Shown here piece by piece: positions 3,576 through 36,962 of a stretch of 47,003 nt of DNA (its first letter is position 1; each line of letters opens with the position of its first letter). The DNA comes from Patescibacteria group bacterium. GTDB lineage: Bacteria; Patescibacteriota; Minisyncoccia; Phycocordibacterales; Phycocordibacteraceae. The notes beneath the pieces are model-generated. The model was given only the letters and a program-made list of their open reading frames with translations. It searched no databases and was not told where the DNA came from. The stretch covers positions 1-47,003 of the forward strand of contig JAGWWK010000001.1 in NCBI GenBank assembly GCA_018970425.1, given 5' to 3'. A program made the translations under genes and the position numbers.

Positions 3576-3651
3576 TACGCACATGGTTTCGGCGCGTTTT
3601 TTTCCGTGCGCTGAAGAATTTGGTAATACTTTCTAATAATTTTTCAAATCC

Positions 3652-4140
3652 GTGGCAACTCCGCAACGAGAAATACCGAGCGATGTCACGAAGGTCATGA
3701 CTCCACTGATCTCGTACTTTGTGTACCGCGCCTTGTCGCAATGGGCTGCATCCGCAGACAGTCTGACCGTAGGATTCATGTCTGAATTTATGGAACCGGT
3801 GGTCGCGGGCAGCATTGGACGTGTGGTGGCGGGCATGGCGCAGGGGTCGGGTCCGTTAGGGAAAGTCGCATCGCTCGTTGTAGGCGCTGGGTATCTTGCA
3901 TATCAAGAGTATGCAGATGTTCAACCGGATCACATTTTCGCGAACTACGCGCTCGGGGCAAGCTACATCTCCGGTGACCCTAGCTGGTTTGTTGAAAAGC
4001 CGTACTATGGCGCACTTGGTACGGCGGTCGCGCTCGGGCTCTGCGCCGGTGGATACTATGCTTCAACCGCGGCGCAGGTAGCAAGTAATCGCTTGTTTGC
4101 ACAGATAGAACAAAGACACAGCAATACTCTGCTAAAATGA
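3652..4140 (+). CDS. Hypothetical Gly/Ala-rich membrane-associated protein; start uncertain (GTG 3652 or ATG 3697)
   Basis: Only long ORF in this interval, co-directional with its neighbours; no family recognised. Confidence 0.4.
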   Translation: MATPQREIPSDVTKVMTPLISYFVYRALSQWAASADSLTVGFMSEFMEPVVAGSIGRVVAGMAQGSGPLGKVASLVVGAGYLAYQEYADVQPDHIFANYALGASYISGDPSWFVEKPYYGALGTAVALGLCAGGYYASTAAQVASNRLFAQIEQRHSNTLLK

Positions 4141-4678: not shown

Positions 4679-5967
4679 AAGGACTCAGCACATTTAGCGC
4701 CGTCGTTCTCGTTATATTTATTGCACTCGCACTCTTCGGAGTGTTTATCTTCGCGACATTTCAACAGTCTGCCCGAGATCGGATAGGTGAGGTGCAAGTT
4801 TGGGGCTCCATACCGCAGGACGCGTTTGACGCGGTTATCGGCTCTGTGCGCGACGCGCGGAGCGACTTTGCCGATGTGAGTTATGAAGAGGTGCCCGCAG
4901 ACACTCTGATGCCGCGCCTTGTTGAAGCAATAGCGGCGGGGCGGGGGCCTGACCTCGTGCTATTTCCCTCATCGAGCGTACTCAAAGATGGCGATAAACT
5001 GAGTCCCATACCGTATGCGCAGTTTCCACGGCGAGACTTTCAAGACACATTTGTTGAAGCAGGCGAGGTGTTTCTCACCGGAGAGGGAATACTCGCAATT
5101 CCAATTTCTATAGATCCGCTTGTTATGTACTGGAACCGTTCACTGTACGCGAGTGCGGGTATCGCATCGCCACCACGCTTTTGGGATGACTTCACACGCA
5201 TCGCACCCCGATTGAGTTCACGAACACAGAGCGGAACGCTCACAGCAAGCGCGGTCGCCTTCGGTACGTGGGAAAACGTCTCGCATGCAAAGGCAGTCTT
5301 TGTCACGATAGTGCGCTCGCTCGGGTCTCCGATAGTGACGCGTCGCGATGATGGGACGATCGACGCATCGCTCCGCTCAAATACAACTGCCGATCCAGCT
5401 GCGAGCGCGCTCAGGTTCGTGGCGGACTTTGCCGATCCTGTAAAGTCGGTATACTCATGGAACAGTGCCCAGAAGCAGAGCCGTGACGCGTTTCTTGCCG
5501 GCACCTTGGCAACCTATATAGCGCCCGCATCTGAACTTGCCTCCCTGCGACAGGGGAATCCGAATCTTAATTTCGATGTGGCAGCACTGCCCACGGCGCG
5601 CGGCGCGTTCGGTTTTGTGGGTGCGGAGGTGTTAGGTATTGGTATTCCGCGCGGCTCAAATAACACAGCTGGCGCGCTTCAGGCCGCGTTCCTTTTGTCA
5701 GCGTCAGCACAGCAAAAACTTCTTGCCGAAGAGTTGACACTGCCTTCGCCACGGCGCGACACTCCAATTACCGATCCCGCGCTCGCGTACACCGCCGTGT
5801 TTGAAGCGGCCGCCCTTCGCGGGTATGCATTCCTCGATCCAGATCCGCGCGCAACGGAAGCGCTCTTTAGCCGTATGGTTGAGAGCGTGGCAAGTGGACG
5901 CGCGACAGTATCGGAAGCCATATCGGCTGCGCATAACGACTTGCAGGCGCTCGTCAGGGTGCGATAA
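4675..5967 (+). CDS. Extracellular solute-binding protein (ABC-type, family 1-like) with N-terminal TM anchor; no adjacent permease or ATPase
   Basis: ATGA overlap with the methyltransferase gene. N-terminal hydrophobic anchor. GPDLVLFPSS and IDPLVMYWNRSLY are typical of sugar-type SBPs. Confidence 0.65.
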   Translation: MKGLSTFSAVVLVIFIALALFGVFIFATFQQSARDRIGEVQVWGSIPQDAFDAVIGSVRDARSDFADVSYEEVPADTLMPRLVEAIAAGRGPDLVLFPSSSVLKDGDKLSPIPYAQFPRRDFQDTFVEAGEVFLTGEGILAIPISIDPLVMYWNRSLYASAGIASPPRFWDDFTRIAPRLSSRTQSGTLTASAVAFGTWENVSHAKAVFVTIVRSLGSPIVTRRDDGTIDASLRSNTTADPAASALRFVADFADPVKSVYSWNSAQKQSRDAFLAGTLATYIAPASELASLRQGNPNLNFDVAALPTARGAFGFVGAEVLGIGIPRGSNNTAGALQAAFLLSASAQQKLLAEELTLPSPRRDTPITDPALAYTAVFEAAALRGYAFLDPDPRATEALFSRMVESVASGRATVSEAISAAHNDLQALVRVR

Positions 5968-8312: not shown

Positions 8313-8321
8313 TGGTATACT
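8313..8321 (+). promoter_or_regulatory. Extended -10-like box tggTATACT, 9 nt upstream of tRNA-Lys position +1
   Basis: tatact 8316-8321, tRNA starts at 8331. Confidence 0.5.
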
Positions 8322-13036: not shown

Positions 13037-14033
13037 CTCCGATACCATCAACTAGGACACTCGGTTAGCTAATAATACCTCCTCTGCCGTTTGAAACCCC
13101 AGACACTGTCTGGGTGTTTTATTAAGAAGTCGGTCGATTTCTATAAGTTGTGCAGTGGTCACCAATCTCAGATCTGATCGTTTCGGTACGATGGTACGTA
13201 TCCAGCGATTCGTGTTCTCGACCAACCCCTTCTCCCACGAACAATACGGAGAGGCGAAATAGAATGGTACTGACAGAGACAGCTCAAGAAGCTGCCACTT
13301 CTGGAATACGATGTCGTTGTCTGTGGTGATGGTCAGAAGCTGATGCTTCTGTTTGATACGACCAAGCTCACGGAGTACGGCATGGTGGGTCTTCCGATAC
13401 AGCTTCCGTACCAGTGCATACCTGGTCCACCGATCCACAAGCACCAACAAGACCACCGGTGACTGTCTCGACACAATGAAATCAAGTTCCCAGTGTCCTG
13501 AGGTACGGACATGAGGTCGAGAAGCAATGAGCTTCTTGGCCGTATCTGAGGGAAGTCGTGTCCCTCGCTTTCGTCCTCTCTTCTGGTGGTGTCTCTCCCA
13601 GAAGAGGTACTGCTCTAATGCACGACTTCGTACATACCGGTATATCGCTTTCTGCGTGATGGGCATGGCGGTTCGTCTCGCATATCCTGCAATACGCTCA
13701 GGTGACCATCCCAAGACCAACTTCTCTCGGACCAATTGCGTCAGCTCGGGACTCAGTGCCACCTTCATGCAGTTCTGCTTGGACCTCCAGCGCCTCACAT
13801 AGGTCTTGTGGTGTGCTTTCCGTGAGCGATACACCCCACAGACCATCTTTTCCCGCACCTCCTTGGAGACCGTATTCACACTACGACCCAGTGACAGAGC
13901 GATAGACCTGAGACTCAATCCACGCCTCCTCAGCGTCTCAATCGAGACGCGTTCCTCATAGGTTAACTGCTGATAGGTGGTTCCTTTTCTCATCACTCCA
14001 GTGTACGGAGTGTCCTAGTGCAAAGTATCGGGG
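13037..14033 (-). mobile_element. IS30-family insertion sequence (~1.0 kb) with imperfect 26-bp terminal inverted repeats
   Basis: Left end ctccgataccatcaactaggacactc (13037-13062) matches the reverse complement of gagtgtcctagtgcaaagtatcgggg (14008-14033) at 21/26 positions. It encloses a single transposase ORF and looks lower in GC than the flanks. Confidence 0.8.
13052..13996 (-). CDS. IS30-family DDE transposase
   Basis: N-terminal HTH (LTYEERVSIETLRRRGLSLRSIALSLGRSVNTVSKEV), then the catalytic core (WELDFI ... TTDND ... SWEKGLVENTNRWIR). Confidence 0.9.
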   Translation of the reverse strand: MMRKGTTYQQLTYEERVSIETLRRRGLSLRSIALSLGRSVNTVSKEVREKMVCGVYRSRKAHHKTYVRRWRSKQNCMKVALSPELTQLVREKLVLGWSPERIAGYARRTAMPITQKAIYRYVRSRALEQYLFWERHHQKRGRKRGTRLPSDTAKKLIASRPHVRTSGHWELDFIVSRQSPVVLLVLVDRWTRYALVRKLYRKTHHAVLRELGRIKQKHQLLTITTDNDIVFQKWQLLELSLSVPFYFASPYCSWEKGLVENTNRWIRTIVPKRSDLRLVTTAQLIEIDRLLNKTPRQCLGFQTAEEVLLANRVS

Positions 14034-18055: not shown

Positions 18056-18138
18056 GCGTCGGTGGCGGAGTGGTCAATCGCACTTGACTGTAAATCAAGC
18101 GCCTTCGGGCTTCGTTGGTTCGAATCCAACCCGGCGCA
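18056..18138 (+). tRNA. tRNA-Tyr (anticodon GUA), bacterial-type long variable arm
   Basis: gcgtcgg/ccggcgc acceptor, anticodon loop ctgtaaa, T arm gttggttcgaatccaac. Confidence 0.9.
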
Positions 18139-18215
18139 CCGAGAGAGGGTCGTAGACAACTCGCTTGTATACGACCGAACGAGACGCGCGGGCAAGGCTT
18201 CCTTACCCGGCGCAC
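18129..18215 (+). repeat. Short tRNA 3'-flank module (E-family) bounded by 11-nt direct repeats of the tRNA-Tyr 3' end
   Basis: acccggcgcac at 18129-18139 (inside the tRNA) and 18205-18215. Between them are hairpin ggtcgta-N13-tacgacc and gaacgagacgcgcgggcaag, which resembles the cgcgggcgag end of the Trp/Val modules. Confidence 0.5.
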
Positions 18216-18457: not shown

Positions 18458-18463
18458 GGCATA

Positions 18464-18485
18464 ATGACCCCATCGGGGTCATTTT
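18464..18485 (+). terminator. Rho-independent terminator after rpmG
   Basis: atgacccc-atc-ggggtcat followed by tttt. Confidence 0.7.
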
Positions 18486-18495
18486 GATTACCGAA

Positions 18496-18641
18496 GGGCC
18501 TATAAGCAAAGCTTCTAGGCCCGGCACTCGGACGCCATAAGTGCAAGCACTCGCGGCGCTCCTCGTTAGGGCCTATAAGCAAAGCTTCTAGGCCCGTCAC
18601 TCGGACACCATGAGTGCAAGCACTCGCGGCGCTCCTCGTTA
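18496..18641 (+). repeat. Two tandem 73-nt tRNA 5'-flank modules (U-family): tRNA-Trp acceptor-stem minihelix mimic plus conserved 45-nt hairpin
   Basis: Units 18496-18568 and 18569-18641 are 70/73 identical. Each begins gggcctata (the first 9 nt of tRNA-Trp) and folds gggccta-t-aagc-aaa-gctt-c-taggccc-g. Then follows ctcggacgcc..gagtgcaagcactc..ggcgctcc. Confidence 0.85.
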
Positions 18642-18712
18642 GGGCCTATAGTTCAATGGTAGAACGACGGTCTCCAAAACCGTTAATCCAGGTTCGAGTC
18701 CTGGTGGGCCCG
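18642..18712 (+). tRNA. tRNA-Trp (anticodon CCA)
   Basis: gggccta/tgggccc acceptor, anticodon loop ctccaaa, T arm ccaggttcgagtcctgg, discriminator G. Confidence 0.9.
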
Positions 18713-18973
18713 CAGATGCGAAGCATCGAGAGGACTCGAACGCTGAGCGGTGCGAGTCGCTGCGACGAGCCGCGAAGCGGTGCCCAGCAGGTACCCGAAC
18801 GAAGGTGAGGGAACCTGCGCGGGCGAGGACTACGTGGGCTCCGAGATGCGAAGCATCGAGAGGACTCGAACGCTGAGCGGTGCGAGTCGCTGCGACGAGC
18901 CGCGAAGCGGTGCCCAGCAGGTACCCGAACGAAGGTGAGGGAACCTGCGCGGGCGAGTCCTGGTGGGCCCGCA
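18699..18973 (+). repeat. Two identical 113-nt tRNA 3'-flank modules (E-family) in tandem (130-nt period), interleaved with copies of the tRNA-Trp 3' end
   Basis: E copies at 18715-18827 and 18845-18957 are identical. tcctggtgggcccgca occurs at 18699-18714 (in the tRNA) and 18958-18973; a degenerate copy gactacgtgggctccga lies at 18828-18844. Confidence 0.85.
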
Positions 18974-34198: not shown

Positions 34199-34262
34199 AA
34201 AGTTCCAATATCAACTATGGTAGCAAAAAATAACCCTTATAAACACTGGACAAAATGTGTTG

Positions 34263-34335
34263 TGGACCCTGCCGGATTCGAACCGGCGACCTCCTCATTG
34301 CAAATGAGGCGCTCTACCAACTAAGCTAAGGGCCC
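34263..34335 (-). tRNA. tRNA-Ala (anticodon UGC), G3:U70 present
   Basis: Reverse complement gggcccttagcttagttggtagagcgcctcatttgcaatgaggaggtcgccggttcgaatccggcagggtcca. Confidence 0.9.
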
Positions 34336-34408
34336 GAGTGAGGAGCGCCGCGAGTGCTTGCACTCATGGCGTCCGAGCGATGGACCCGCACTGTTTCAGT
34401 TTGGGCCT
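34336..34408 (-). repeat. Single 73-nt tRNA 5'-flank module (U-family, Ala type) abutting tRNA-Ala(UGC)
   Basis: The reverse complement is 72/73 identical to the units at 36741-36886 (aggcccaaactgaaacagtgcgggtcca + tcgctcggacgccatgagtgcaagcactcgcggcgctcctcactc). Confidence 0.85.
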
Positions 34409-34416
34409 TCGCTCGC

Positions 34417-34887
34417 TTATGCTAGCACAAATACGAGTGCTGGGACAAGAATACCAATAAGCGCCCCAATAAGGACCTGCATTCGCGTATGACAGCGTAT
34501 ATGGACTCGCGCAGCGCCTACAAGGACTGCGAGTACGGCGGCACCTCCTGCTACGGGAAGTGCATACTCACTGGGGACGGTATACAGGGCGAGTGGAGCC
34601 AAAAACCATGCAAAGGCGCTGTGTCCTGATGGAAACGCTCCCAGTGAGAGGCCGTGAGCTCTTTCACCGTTCGGTCGTGTGCGCCGTGTGAGTACTTTGA
34701 GGAACGCAATTGCGACACCCAGGGCCGCGAGCGAGATGAGTATTCGAAACCCCGCTTCGGGATCGCCGTTCAGTGCGATGTACGTCGCGTACGCTGCAAC
34801 AATAGGCGCAAAACGAATCGGTGTGAAAAGTGAAGTTGCATGCGCCAGGCGCGTTACAAAAGGTAGTGCCATGGGCACATGATACAC
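34417..34887 (-). CDS. PAP2-family phosphatase (membrane)
   Basis: KVLTRRTRP, PSGHS, and RVHIRCHTRMQ, corresponding to the three PAP2 motifs. Confidence 0.7.
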   Translation of the reverse strand: MYHVPMALPFVTRLAHATSLFTPIRFAPIVAAYATYIALNGDPEAGFRILISLAALGVAIAFLKVLTRRTRPNGERAHGLSLGAFPSGHSAFAWFLAPLALYTVPSEYALPVAGGAAVLAVLVGAARVHIRCHTRMQVLIGALIGILVPALVFVLA

Positions 34888-35320: not shown

Positions 35321-35397
35321 GGGCGGCTAGCTCAGCTGGTTAGAGCGCACGCTTCACACGCGTGAGGTCACAGGTTCGATTCCTGTGCTGCCCACCA
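35321..35397 (+). tRNA. tRNA-Val (anticodon CAC), CCA encoded
   Basis: gggcggc/gctgccc acceptor, anticodon loop ttcacac, T arm acaggttcgattcctgt. Confidence 0.9.
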
Positions 35398-35601
35398 AGT
35401 ATCGCCTGATACTTGGGGCAGCAGCACGCACTGCGTGCGGCAGGAATCGAACGCCGGAGCGATGTGTGATGTTTCATCACACCGCGAGGCGGTGCCCAGG
35501 CCAAGTCCGACCGAAGGGGAGGACGAGAGCCGCGGGCGACTTCCTGTGCTGCCCACCAAGTATCGCCTGATACTTGGGGCAGCAGCACGCACTGCGTGCG
35601 G
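35380..35601 (+). repeat. tRNA 3'-flank module (E-family, 100 nt) bounded by 61-nt direct repeats (last 18 nt of tRNA-Val plus a 43-nt two-hairpin trailer)
   Basis: Direct repeats at 35380-35440 and 35541-35601 are identical. The insert 35441-35540 shares cgaacgc-gagcg, ccgcgaggcggtgcccag, hairpin gtcc-GACCGAAGGGGA-ggac and cgcgggcgac with the Trp module. Confidence 0.85.
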
Positions 35602-35752
35602 TTTGGGGAGAATTTCTTGGTCGGGCCGTAAGCACTTCGTGCTTTCTTCCAGCGCTCGCTCGGAAATATAAAAAAATTTCTATTTCCCTCGCTCGCTCGG
35701 AAGTAGTACAGTAGTACGTGCGGTTTGGGGAGAATTTCTTGGTCGGGCCGTA
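35596..35752 (+). repeat. 35-nt direct repeat (26-nt leader plus the first 9 nt of tRNA-Pro) with a 122-nt period
   Basis: gtgcggtttggggagaatttcttggtcgggccgta at 35596-35630 and 35718-35752. The first copy continues into hairpin agcac-ttc-gtgct and an AT-rich inverted repeat ggaaata..tatttcc. Confidence 0.8.
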
Positions 35753-35817
35753 GTATACCGGTAGTACGTGCGCTTCGGGTGCGTAAAGACTGGGTTCGAT
35801 TCCCAGCGGCCCGACCA
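35744..35817 (+). tRNA. tRNA-Pro (anticodon CGG), CCA encoded
   Basis: cgggccg/cggcccg acceptor, anticodon loop ttcgggt, T arm ctgggttcgattcccag. Confidence 0.9.
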
Positions 35818-35977
35818 AGAAATGCTCCGAGTGTCTGGTAGACACTCGTGGTCGCAGTGCGAGTAAAGACTGGGTTCGATTCCCAGCGGCCCGACCAAGA
35901 AATGCTCCGAGTGTCTGGTAGACACTCGTGGTCGCAGTGCGAGTAAAGACTGGGTTCGATTCCCAGCGGCCCCACCA
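35818..35977 (+). repeat. Two tandem 80-nt units: a 46-nt hairpin spacer plus a copy of the 3' 34 nt of tRNA-Pro(CGG), from the variable region to CCA
   Basis: Units at 35818-35897 and 35898-35977. The spacer agaaatgctccgagtgtctggtagacactcgtggtcgcagtgcgag contains an 8-bp hairpin cgagtgtc/gacactcg. The last copy has cggccccacca instead of cggcccgacca. Confidence 0.85.
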
Positions 35978-36010
35978 AAATGCTATTTTCTAGCTAGAAG
36001 ACAAGCGTCC

Positions 36011-36146
36011 GTCCCATCGTTTCGGGAAGGATTCACGCCAGCGTGGTATCCTCTCCCTACACTCGGGCCGTAAGCCTGGCTTCCGTCCCATCGTTCCGGG
36101 AAGGATTCACGCCAGCGTGGTATCCTCTCCCTACACTCGGGCCGTA
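36011..36146 (+). repeat. 62-nt direct repeat (74-nt period) containing a -10-like box, a leader, and the first 9 nt of tRNA-Pro(GGG)
   Basis: gtcccatcgtt(t/c)cgggaaggattcacgccagcgtggtatcctctccctacactcgggccgta at 36011-36072 and 36085-36146 (61/62 identical). tggtatcct boxes at 36044-36052 and 36118-36126. Confidence 0.85.
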
Positions 36147-36702: not shown

Positions 36703-36711
36703 TGGTATCCT
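36703..36711 (+). promoter_or_regulatory. Extended -10-like box tggTATCCT upstream of the U-module array and tRNA-Ala(GGC)
   Basis: tatcct 36706-36711; the same box occurs inside the tRNA-Pro(GGG) upstream repeats. Confidence 0.45.
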
Positions 36712-36740
36712 AGTGACGGGCGATAGCGACATCCTCACTC

Positions 36741-36886
36741 GGGCCCAAACTGAAACAGTGCGGGTCCATCGCTCGGACGCCATGAGTGCAAGCACTCGCG
36801 GCGCTCCTCACTCGGGCCCAAACTGAAACAGTGCGGGTCCATCGCTCGGACGCCATGAGTGCAAGCACTCGCGGCGCTCCTCACTC
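36741..36886 (+). repeat. Two identical tandem 73-nt tRNA 5'-flank modules (U-family, Ala type): tRNA-Ala acceptor minihelix mimic (G3:U70 kept) plus conserved 45-nt hairpin
   Basis: Units at 36741-36813 and 36814-36886: gggccc-aaa-ctg-aaa-cag-tgc-gggtcc-a, then tcgctcggacgccatgagtgcaagcactcgcggcgctcctcactc. They abut tRNA-Ala(GGC). Confidence 0.88.
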
Positions 36887-36962
36887 GGGCCCTTAGCTTA
36901 GCTGGTAGAGCGCTTCCATGGCATGGAAGAGGTCAGGAGTTCGAGTCTCCTAGGGTCCACCA
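36887..36962 (+). tRNA. tRNA-Ala (anticodon GGC), G3:U70, CCA encoded
   Basis: gggccct/agggtcc acceptor, anticodon loop atggcat, T arm aggagttcgagtctcct. Confidence 0.9.

Follow-up and report, generated by a model that had tools for sequence, protein, structure and literature searches.

A possible acceptor-stem-copying cassette at tRNA gene ends in a Patescibacteria group bacterium

Alanyl-tRNA synthetase (AlaRS) charges mini- and microhelices in vitro when these carry the G3:U70 pair. Repeats that include a piece of a tRNA gene are known from the E. coli tyrT locus, where there are 178-bp tandem repeats each with the last 19 nt of tRNA-Tyr. A short sequence that directs an element to its site is known from the ends of IS200/IS605 elements, where a guide of 4–5 nt, constant within a family, beside a bulged hairpin pairs with the cleavage or target site. 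In the tRNA fragments that stem from mobile-element integration, one contiguous piece is repeated, and the fragment is separated from the gene by at least 9–23 kb of mobile DNA (bioRxiv 10.1101/2022.07.05.498093). The processing signals of MALAT1/mascRNA and of plant tRNA-snoRNA genes are the matter of references 66–67 in PMC12045711. The subject here is a pair of identical 73-nt units that directly precede a tRNA-Ala(GGC) gene in a 47,003-nt stretch of DNA (contig JAGWWK010000001.1, positions 1 to 47,003; hereafter the window) from a Patescibacteria group bacterium. Each unit has two hairpins, and the outer 6–7 bp of the first reproduce the acceptor stem of the neighbouring tRNA. The best reading of these and related units, to which the sequence comparisons give about an even chance, is that they belong to a patchy, probably horizontally spreading, duplicative cassette of tRNA gene ends.

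The modules and the stems that they carry

The two units occupy positions 36741–36813 and 36814–36886 of the plus strand and abut tRNA-Ala(GGC) at 36887–36962 (+; called by ARAGORN, with 62.9 bits from the Rfam tRNA model), whose acceptor is GGGCCCT/AGGGTCC with A73 and an encoded CCA. That they are identical and abut the gene was the starting point of the original prediction, which was made from the letters of the window alone, and it is upheld by the sequence and by Tandem Repeats Finder (TRF; array 36732–36892, period 73, 2.2 copies, 100% matches). Within unit 1, hairpin 1 (36741–36767; arms GGGCCC/GGGTCC, inner part ACTG-AAA-CAGT) is followed by an A at 36768, a linker at 36769–36774, hairpin 2 at 36775–36807 (33 nt) and a tail at 36808–36813; the unit is recognized by its fold, by the consensus structure and by R1, a covariance model of the module (93.3 bits, E = 3e-20). 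A partial module tail, tcctcactc (36732–36740, +), stands before unit 1 at the point where the TRF array starts, and together with gggccc it makes a 15-nt direct repeat, tcctcactcgggccc, that recurs three times.

The fold that had been proposed for the first 28 nt, with a 6-bp acceptor helix, G3:U70 and an A as discriminator, is confirmed by folding and sequence, as ((((((..((((...))))..)))))). at −15.3 kcal/mol (z = −3.8); the hairpin itself is 27 nt. Its acceptor-like helix has 6 pairs, with A:C at position 7:66. For the 73-nt unit in full, folding gives two hairpins with −35.1 kcal/mol (z = −4.4), a stability that 0 of 200 shuffles reached. The unit has no recognizable D, anticodon or T arm, and neither ARAGORN nor the Rfam tRNA model calls it a tRNA. 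It is not a tmRNA either, as ARAGORN reports none in the window and the unit has neither a T-loop nor a reading frame. When Rfam was searched with the module, at the gathering score and at E up to 10, only tRNAs reached the gathering score, and the best non-tRNA match was at 16.9 bits against a cut-off of 70. Because three contigs built from short reads of this strain begin within the tRNA, at window positions 36906–36908, the number of copies seen in the perfect repeat may be a matter of assembly.

Copies of the module are present at other tRNA genes of the window. A 26-mer from hairpin 2 occurs five times against 0 expected, twice at tRNA-Trp, twice at tRNA-Ala(GGC) and once on the minus strand. 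The two modules before tRNA-Trp (18642–18713) lie at 18496–18641 (+) and have the same hairpin 2, as seen by TRF, folding and R1; their hairpin 1 reads GGGCCTA-T-AAGC-AAA-GCTT-C-TAGGCCC-G. The minus-strand copy is a single module at 34336–34408 (−), 72/73 identical to units 1 and 2, which abuts tRNA-Ala(UGC) (34262–34335, −). The earlier observation that the remaining 45-nt hairpin is common to the tRNA-Trp modules is therefore right; this fifth copy had been overlooked. A diverged module, type 2, abuts tRNA-Pro(GGG) at 36064–36137 (+; TRF period 74, fold, weak R1 score of 13–15 bits) and has a homologue in the locus L046 described below. It keeps the two-hairpin plan, is preceded by a partial copy (36008–36063) and has TGGTATCCT, the promoter-like box considered later, on the 3′ strand of hairpin 2. 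An inverted homologue at 18141–18213 (−) abuts the 3′ end of tRNA-Tyr (18056–18140, +). R1 matches it solely on the minus strand, at 29.8 bits (E 2e-5 to 9e-5), it folds at −34.4 kcal/mol, and its arms match the terminal helix of the tRNA; in this mirror orientation hairpin 2 adjoins the tRNA and hairpin 1 is distal. The same inverted arrangement is found at tRNA-Tyr in L074 (6392–6480, −), and hairpin 2 there is a bidirectional terminator-like hairpin.

For copies elsewhere, the hairpin 2 core was used as a query in one scan each of species-representative genomes and of metagenome contigs, and orthologous loci of relatives were fetched via AtpB and ClpB homologues. The genome scan gave one true match (L002) and one chance match. 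The metagenome scan gave 55 loci, of which four were true (L023, L041, which equals L046, and L045) and the remainder were chance matches in GC-rich DNA. The modules so found stand before tRNA-Leu(UAA) in L002, tRNA-Leu(CAA) in L023, tRNA-Pro(UGG) in L046 and, in L045, a tRNA truncated at the contig end. Among the fetched orthologous loci, L073 has a variant module before tRNA-Trp and another type before tRNA-Cys, L067 has a third type before tRNA-Ala(CGC), and L071 has a fourth form before the orthologous tRNA-Ala(UGC). At the tRNA-Cys gene of L077 there is a hairpin 2 variant (5446–5492, −) without an acceptor-like hairpin 1, from which it follows that the module's two hairpins are separable (this hairpin 2 is inserted behind a conserved atagcgtagtattg). 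Overall, the tRNA partners are Ala, Trp, Leu(UAA), Leu(CAA), Pro(UGG), Pro(GGG) and Cys.

Common to the modules is a hairpin 1 with arms of 7 nt each. Between the arms stand a T, an inner stem of 4 bp capped by a 3-nt loop, and one base; one further base follows the 3′ arm. The inner mini-hairpin mostly has the consensus T-AAGS-NNN-SCTT. A linker, TCNCTC, leads to hairpin 2, which is about 33 nt long, has a bulged C on its 3′ side 3–4 pairs above the base and often a CNAG loop, and a 6-nt pyrimidine tail then stops exactly at the +1 of the tRNA. In every case the arms of hairpin 1 are those of the adjacent tRNA's acceptor, with 5–7 of 7 positions agreeing in the 5′ arm and 5–7 of 7 in the 3′ arm when about 1.75 would agree by chance. 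The acceptor stem of tRNA-Trp differs between the window and L073, and so do the modules there, each of which follows the tRNA beside it. Counted together, the outer helix, one mismatch or wobble and the inner stem make 12 layers, the same as an acceptor stem stacked on a T stem.

The fold is conserved. Standard pairs account for 95.8% of cells in the nine type-1 copies, and two-sided changes are seen in all 11 of the 11 hairpin 1 pairs and in 2 pairs of hairpin 2; none of 500 shuffles matched this, and the signal is lost on sliding the partners. Both covariations in hairpin 2 come from L073 (GCC/GGC to GTC/GAC and GTGC/GCAC to GCGC/GCGC). RNAalifold independently yields the same fold and joins linker and tail by two further pairs, which are G:C in five copies and A:U in four; with this predicted pairing only about 2 unpaired bases would remain before the RNase P site. 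Types 2, 3 and 5 differ in sequence and have the same fold plan, and in types 2 and 3 the promoter −10 box is inside hairpin 2. Over 16 modules, sense and antisense strands fold about equally, as judged by folding energies and G:U counts. That the 73-nt unit is one copy of a cassette restricted to a lineage, at tRNA gene ends in a group of Patescibacteria (candidate phyla radiation, CPR), is a view held with moderate confidence. No description of such modules was found in the literature searched, and an acceptor-stem-copying cassette family at tRNA gene ends has apparently not been described before.

The alanine identity pair

The original prediction took the 28-nt hairpin to be an encoded tRNA-Ala minihelix which is released, CCA-tagged and charged by AlaRS through G3:U70. 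The known in vitro charging of such helices counts for it, as does the presence of G3:U70 and A73 in all three Ala modules of the window: their hairpin 1 has G:T at 3:70 and then an A behind the 3′ arm, as do the window's real tRNA-Ala genes. The module at the Ala(UGC) gene of L071 also keeps T70, in a G:T at 3:70, and has a second G:T at 2:71. However, the three window copies, at Ala(GGC) and Ala(UGC), are all type 1 and 72–73/73 identical, and so represent a single lineage. In L067 the module at Ala(CGC) has G:C at 3:70 though its own tRNA carries U70. There are then three independent lineages of Ala-linked modules, and one of the three has G3:C70.

The same cassette is also found at Trp, Leu, Pro and Cys tRNA genes, with their own stems. 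Because the modules of other tRNAs carry the stems of those tRNAs, G3:U70 and A73 in 36741–36886 are explained by copying of the whole stem, and the proposal that G3:U70 marks a chargeable minihelix specific to alanine does not hold up. The window Trp module has U6:A67 versus U6:G67 in the tRNA. The base after the 3′ arm is the tRNA discriminator in the Ala, window Trp and Cys modules and differs from it in both Leu genes, both Pro genes, the Trp gene of L073 and the Ala gene of L067; for a charging substrate the Leu, Pro and L073 Trp modules would have the wrong discriminator. CCA is encoded in none of the module copies (in the Ala unit A73 is followed by tcgctc), and the hairpin lacks a T-arm, has A:C at 7:66, and ends in a 4-bp stem with a triloop.

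Modules are moreover dispensable in relatives. Absence from close relatives had been named as a point against the proposal, and L075, whose tRNA-Trp is identical to that of the window at 72/72 positions, has no module. Of the two kinds of conservation that had been looked to in orthologous modules, substitutions that preserve the helix are there (the 11 of 11 covarying pairs of hairpin 1), and retention of G3:U70 is not, given the G3:C70 of L067. Two of the three observations named beforehand as speaking against the proposal have been made. The modules give no sign of selection for recognition by AlaRS, and nothing in their sequence indicates alanine charging. A chargeable Ala minihelix is the least supported of the readings considered and is very improbable. 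The G3:U70 pair, striking when looked at alone, would have come with the copied stem rather than marking a new alanine-charged RNA.

Gain, loss and probable spread of the cassette

The 38-nt core of hairpin 2 is identical at 38/38 positions in the window Ala modules, L002, L023 and L046. L002 and L023 are distant from the window (tRNAs 67–85%, IF-2 59% and ParB 63% identical), and L046 has no gene comparable with the window, hence no relatedness figure. In closer relatives the core agrees at 33/38 positions in L073 (ClpB 89%) and at 26/38 in L077 (ClpB 85%). At the tRNA-Trp locus there is no module in L074 (ClpB 90%) or in L075 (ClpB 88%), and at the tRNA-Leu(CAA)/parB locus L023 has a module and the orthologous gene of the window has none. 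The tRNA-Pro(CGG) gene of L071 has only catggtattct and 9 nt before its +1, an empty state. The pattern is patchy and at odds with genome relatedness; on sequence grounds it indicates that modules are frequently gained and lost and that type 1 recently spread horizontally. The alternative would be a constraint on module sequence stronger than that on the tRNAs themselves, and the compensatory changes in L073 argue against it. Because it is gained, lost, tandem-duplicated and near-identical in distant genomes, the cassette behaves as a duplicative and probably horizontally mobile DNA element rather than as a constant component of particular tRNA genes. (The tRNA-Trp gene of the window is itself 100% identical to that of L075 and 75% identical to that of L073, which has a different acceptor stem, and this suggests allele replacement of the tRNA-Trp gene, as ClpB identity is 88% and 89%, respectively.)

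As to how a copy might arise, the neighbouring tRNA gene would serve as the template for the arms of hairpin 1, through either local template switching or a partial duplication, and it would be for this reason that the Ala copies carry G3:U70 and A73. The two identical units before tRNA-Ala(GGC) may be the recent outcome of slippage, or of an unequal exchange, at the 15-nt direct repeats; the copies are 100% identical and other assemblies break here, which speaks for recency or instability. Snap-back priming from the inner hairpin was considered and rejected: the pair at position 8 is T.C or T.G and not T:A, and the Ala modules keep G:T.

The fourth form, in L071, bears on origin. Its sequence, GGGCCCT-TA-GCTT-AGTAACA-GAGC-TACC-AGGGTTC, opens with the initial 16 nt and the D-arm of the tRNA beside it and continues with the 3′ acceptor strand. 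It looks like a tandem tRNA copy that has lost its interior, an intermediate form. Taken with the tandem partial tRNA repeats that are common near the tRNAs of the window, it could suggest that all of the modules are independently duplicated tRNA genes which decayed by interior deletion, with neither mobility nor function. For type 1 this is not so, because the inner hairpin and hairpin 2 are constant at unrelated tRNAs and the arms alone differ. Such plain pseudogene decay would leave unexplained the identical T-AAGC-AAA-GCTT and 38-nt core at unrelated tRNAs in distant genomes, as well as the constant 73-nt geometry, and is quite improbable.

Also improbable, if slightly less so, are scars of site-specific integration, in which the modules would be attL/attR remnants of elements with a tRNA-targeting integrase, mostly deleted since. 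Direct repeats of tRNA segments around an insert are the classical signature of such events (bioRxiv 10.1101/2022.07.05.498093), and the repeats of tRNA 3′ ends in the window have identity that begins in the T-loop. A 15-nt direct repeat around a 58-nt insert is present at the Ala array. However, inserts are merely 45–58 nt in length and have a conserved folded architecture, the location is at the 5′ end of the gene with both acceptor strands present as an inverted repeat, no integrase is found among the window open reading frames (ORFs) scanned, and viral contigs, phage records and plasmids have no significant match.

Several of these points weigh on the cassette reading too. The reading comes with no mechanism that would rewrite both arms and leave the inner hairpin and hairpin 2 as they are. 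Among the window ORFs scanned, the sole mobile-element gene is an IS30-like transposase (13052–13996, −; HTH_38 and a weak rve match) about 5 kb from the nearest module; there is no integrase, reverse transcriptase or HUH protein, and no transposase linked to the modules. Terminal inverted repeats are absent from the modules, as is any constant target motif to their left. As viral contigs and phage and plasmid records are without significant match, there is no known vector: scans of viral contigs with an exact 22-mer and with a degenerate hairpin 2 pattern gave 0 matches, and BLAST of the unit gave no match in E. coli genomes or plasmids and, in phages, only a chance match (E = 0.6). From the BLAST result it also follows that hairpin 2 does not derive from a conserved RNA such as rRNA, or from a known plasmid or phage. 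The comparison covers only about 12 independent modules, the transcription and RNase P cleavage of the array are inferred, and a selected RNA function would likewise be in keeping with the strong conservation of structure across diverged types and with modules that stop precisely at +1.

Upstream of the array is an extended −10-like box, TGGTATCCT (tggtatcct), at 36703–36711 (+). The motif TGGTATNNT has 17 sites in the window versus 2.55 expected, an approximately 7-fold enrichment, mostly shortly before genes or tRNAs (for example at 8313, 15276, 18003, 18287, 34448 on the minus strand, 36044, 36118 and 36703), and this makes tggtatcct a credible extended −10. TGGTATNNT is probably the extended −10 promoter of the host, in which case the leaders of several tRNAs would be no more than a few nucleotides long. 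TGGTATNNT sits 23–33 nt upstream of the window Ala modules (the box of the minus-strand module is at 34456–34448); a weak −10-like hexamer 9–11 nt before several modules is not relied on. The original prediction had placed the array downstream of a tggtatcct box, and the enrichment of the motif upstream of genes bears this out. Since the units stand between a credible promoter and the tRNA, the array probably belongs to the pre-tRNA leader. It would be transcribed from the TGGTATCCT promoter and taken off by RNase P. Because the leader/G1 context recurs at every junction with an acceptor-like helix behind it, the enzyme may in addition cleave there and free 73-nt two-hairpin RNAs. (Near the tRNA-Trp modules, taaggcataat after the rpmG stop, 18459–18490, is conserved in L073–L076; it is followed by a terminator-like hairpin and then by tRNA-Trp, which may be transcribed by read-through from rpmG or from a promoter of its own.)

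A leader RNA selected to act in cis or in trans, as a functional part of the pre-tRNA, could do so in more than one way: as a cognate decoy or regulator for a factor by which acceptor stems are read (an aminoacyl-tRNA synthetase, RNase P or Z, the CCA enzyme or a tRNA-targeting toxin), as a brake on RNase P, or as the source of a stable 73-nt small RNA. The two-hairpin plan, kept with compensatory changes across diverged types, is consistent with this, and so are the 12-layer geometry of hairpin 1, arms that follow the tRNA even at the orthologous tRNA-Trp locus of the window and L073, the exact abutment to +1, and the covarying linker-tail pairs that leave about 2 free nt before the RNase P site. 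Set against these are the presence or absence of the module among close relatives, one with an identical tRNA, its variable copy number, the unconserved discriminator and unencoded CCA, the L077 tRNA-Cys gene with hairpin 2 and without hairpin 1, the inverted homologue at the 3′ end of tRNA-Tyr, from which a transcript would hold antisense sequence, and the about equal folding of both strands. A selected leader RNA is possible and on balance unlikely. Together with the L071 form and the constant inner hairpin and hairpin 2 of type 1, the inverted copy at tRNA-Tyr and the equal folding of strands favour a process at the DNA level that would treat both ends of a tRNA gene alike, with an RNA role of the leader copies still conceivable.

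A second structured element is found on the other side of many tRNA genes in the clade. It is about 100 nt long and in the window lies at 18714–18957 (two units, after tRNA-Trp) and at 35441–35540 (after tRNA-Val), the latter flanked by identical 61-nt repeats at 35380–35440 and 35541–35601; it is also present in L073, L075, L076 and L077 after Leu, Tyr, Trp and Cys tRNAs. The element begins with an antisense copy of the T-arm, continues with a core of ..GAACGCCGGAG..GAGGCGGTGCCCAG..GCGGGCGA, and ends with a repeat of the tRNA 3′ end (T-loop half, 3′ acceptor strand and discriminator); the antisense T-arm copy pairs with this repeated 3′ end as the closing helix. RNAalifold folds it into three helices, and 22 of the 34 pairs show compensatory changes. 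Beyond tRNAs there is no Rfam match to the Trp 3′ element, at the gathering score or at E up to 10, and its core has 0 matches in viral contigs. The 3′ element and the 5′ module follow the same logic, a structured core with a copy of the adjacent tRNA helix.

A more far-reaching suggestion, tentative and unlikely as it stands, is that the cassette and the 3′ element are new miniature mobile elements that home to tRNA gene termini; in its second form, it would make the modules cognate acceptor-stem decoy RNAs. For homing, a re-writable segment would pair with the acceptor (or T-arm) strand of the target, such that the 3′ arm of hairpin 1 is the guide and the 5′ arm the copy of the target. Targeting of this sort would be programmable and structure-dependent, loosely like IS200/IS605 ends or bridge RNAs, but with tRNA ends as what is read.

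Other repeats of the window adjoin tRNAs as well; every one of its long tandem repeats does. An 80-nt unit in 2.5 copies (35783–35978) consists of the last 35 nt of tRNA-Pro(CGG) and a 45-nt spacer with a GAGTGTCT..AGACACTC hairpin. The tRNA-Ala(cgc) called by ARAGORN at 35823–35897 is a pseudo-tRNA, since its acceptor arms are unpaired and the Rfam tRNA model is silent. L046 has a similar 41-nt threefold repeat of a tRNA-Pro 3′ end. Before tRNA-Pro(CGG), at 35595–35752, identical 36-nt direct repeats, cgtgcggtttggggagaatttcttggtcgggccgta, flank an 86-nt insert that starts module-like (CGGGCCG-T-AAGC..GCTT), lacks a 3′ arm and holds two TCGCTCGGAA motifs.

The window is chromosomal, with gyrA, clpB, topA, a short IF-2, relA/spoT, serS, uvrC and an ATP synthase operon, and has 15 tRNA calls by ARAGORN in its 47 kb, 1 of them the pseudo-tRNA. 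The named homologues of its AtpB and ClpB are from Candidatus Kaiserbacteria, Paceibacteria or ‘Patescibacteria group’, and by this measure its host is a CPR bacterium. An exact-protein look-up of L33 (rpmG) returned no record, and a homologue search with the DUF2177 protein returned the self-match only. Drafts of the window strain and of relatives break, or have a 100-N gap, exactly at tRNA-flanking repeats (the starts of L058–L060, L066 and L067, and L069 at 3614–3713); tRNA-flanking modules are probably under-represented in draft genomes.

If the cassette reading is true, the tRNA genes of a large and little-studied radiation bear dynamic structured cassettes that copy the terminal helix of the host tRNA and move between distant genomes. 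For annotation, these would be a source of false or partial tRNA calls and of broken assemblies. For tRNA maturation, leaders with nearly no single-stranded stretch before the RNase P site would be unusual. For the biology of mobile elements, a 73-nt element with a re-written, target-matching hairpin would involve a mechanism not described so far.

Comparison with known systems

Two kinds of array can be set aside. The array is not a TIGR-Tas guide array of the kind found in CPR bacteria, whose units have two spacers without covariation and stand beside a Tas (Nop-domain) gene: the units are 73 nt and not 36, their two variable segments are mutually complementary, and no Tas gene is among the ORFs scanned. 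It is not a CRISPR-like array, as the would-be spacers are identical and self-complementary.

With the synthetic tRNA-Ala mini- and microhelix substrates of AlaRS, the Ala modules have in common a short acceptor-stem helix, G3:U70 and A73. Unlike them, the module is encoded in the genome and embedded in a leader, is without CCA, and has a 4-bp stem and triloop in place of a T-arm; the cassette exists for Trp, Leu, Pro and Cys also, and in one of the Ala-linked lineages the G:U is lost. MALAT1/mascRNA and the plant tRNA-snoRNA genes offer the likeness of a tRNA-like helix beside a structured RNA, possibly cut by RNase P or Z. These, however, are eukaryotic and full cloverleaf-like with demonstrated products, whereas processing of the module would be a matter of deduction.

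The bulged hairpin of the module, next to a short segment (the 3′ arm) complementary to a flanking target (the tRNA 5′ strand), recalls the ends of IS200/IS605 elements, and the target likewise comes after the hairpin foot, on its 3′ side and within a few nucleotides. Neither TnpA nor TnpB was found, and the left end of the modules is undefined; this is a resemblance only. The integration fragments of van der Gulik et al. are, like the modules, partial tRNA copies that form a direct repeat beside an intact gene; the modules differ in having a conserved hairpin of 45–58 nt in between, and in having 5′ and 3′ acceptor strands joined in one hairpin. The tyrT repeats are tandem repeats beside a tRNA gene that include its terminal piece, but they are on the 3′ side of a single locus, have no acceptor hairpin, and do not make up a family over many tRNAs and genomes.

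REP/REPIN and MITE-like repeats (PMC3184786) are similarly short, hairpin-forming, non-coding and multi-copy, some of them tandem or inverted, with a patchy distribution. As in that class, the modules are multi-copy, near-identical in unrelated contexts and present or absent among relatives. They are without its terminal inverted repeats, target duplication (the 7–9 nt that are repeated are the start of the tRNA), GTAG-type motif, and transposase or RAYT. They are also fixed at tRNA termini, and one of their hairpins is rewritten to match the neighbour. The modules thus share one or two features with integration fragments, with REP/MITE elements and with the tyrT repeats, and they fall short of defining features of each.

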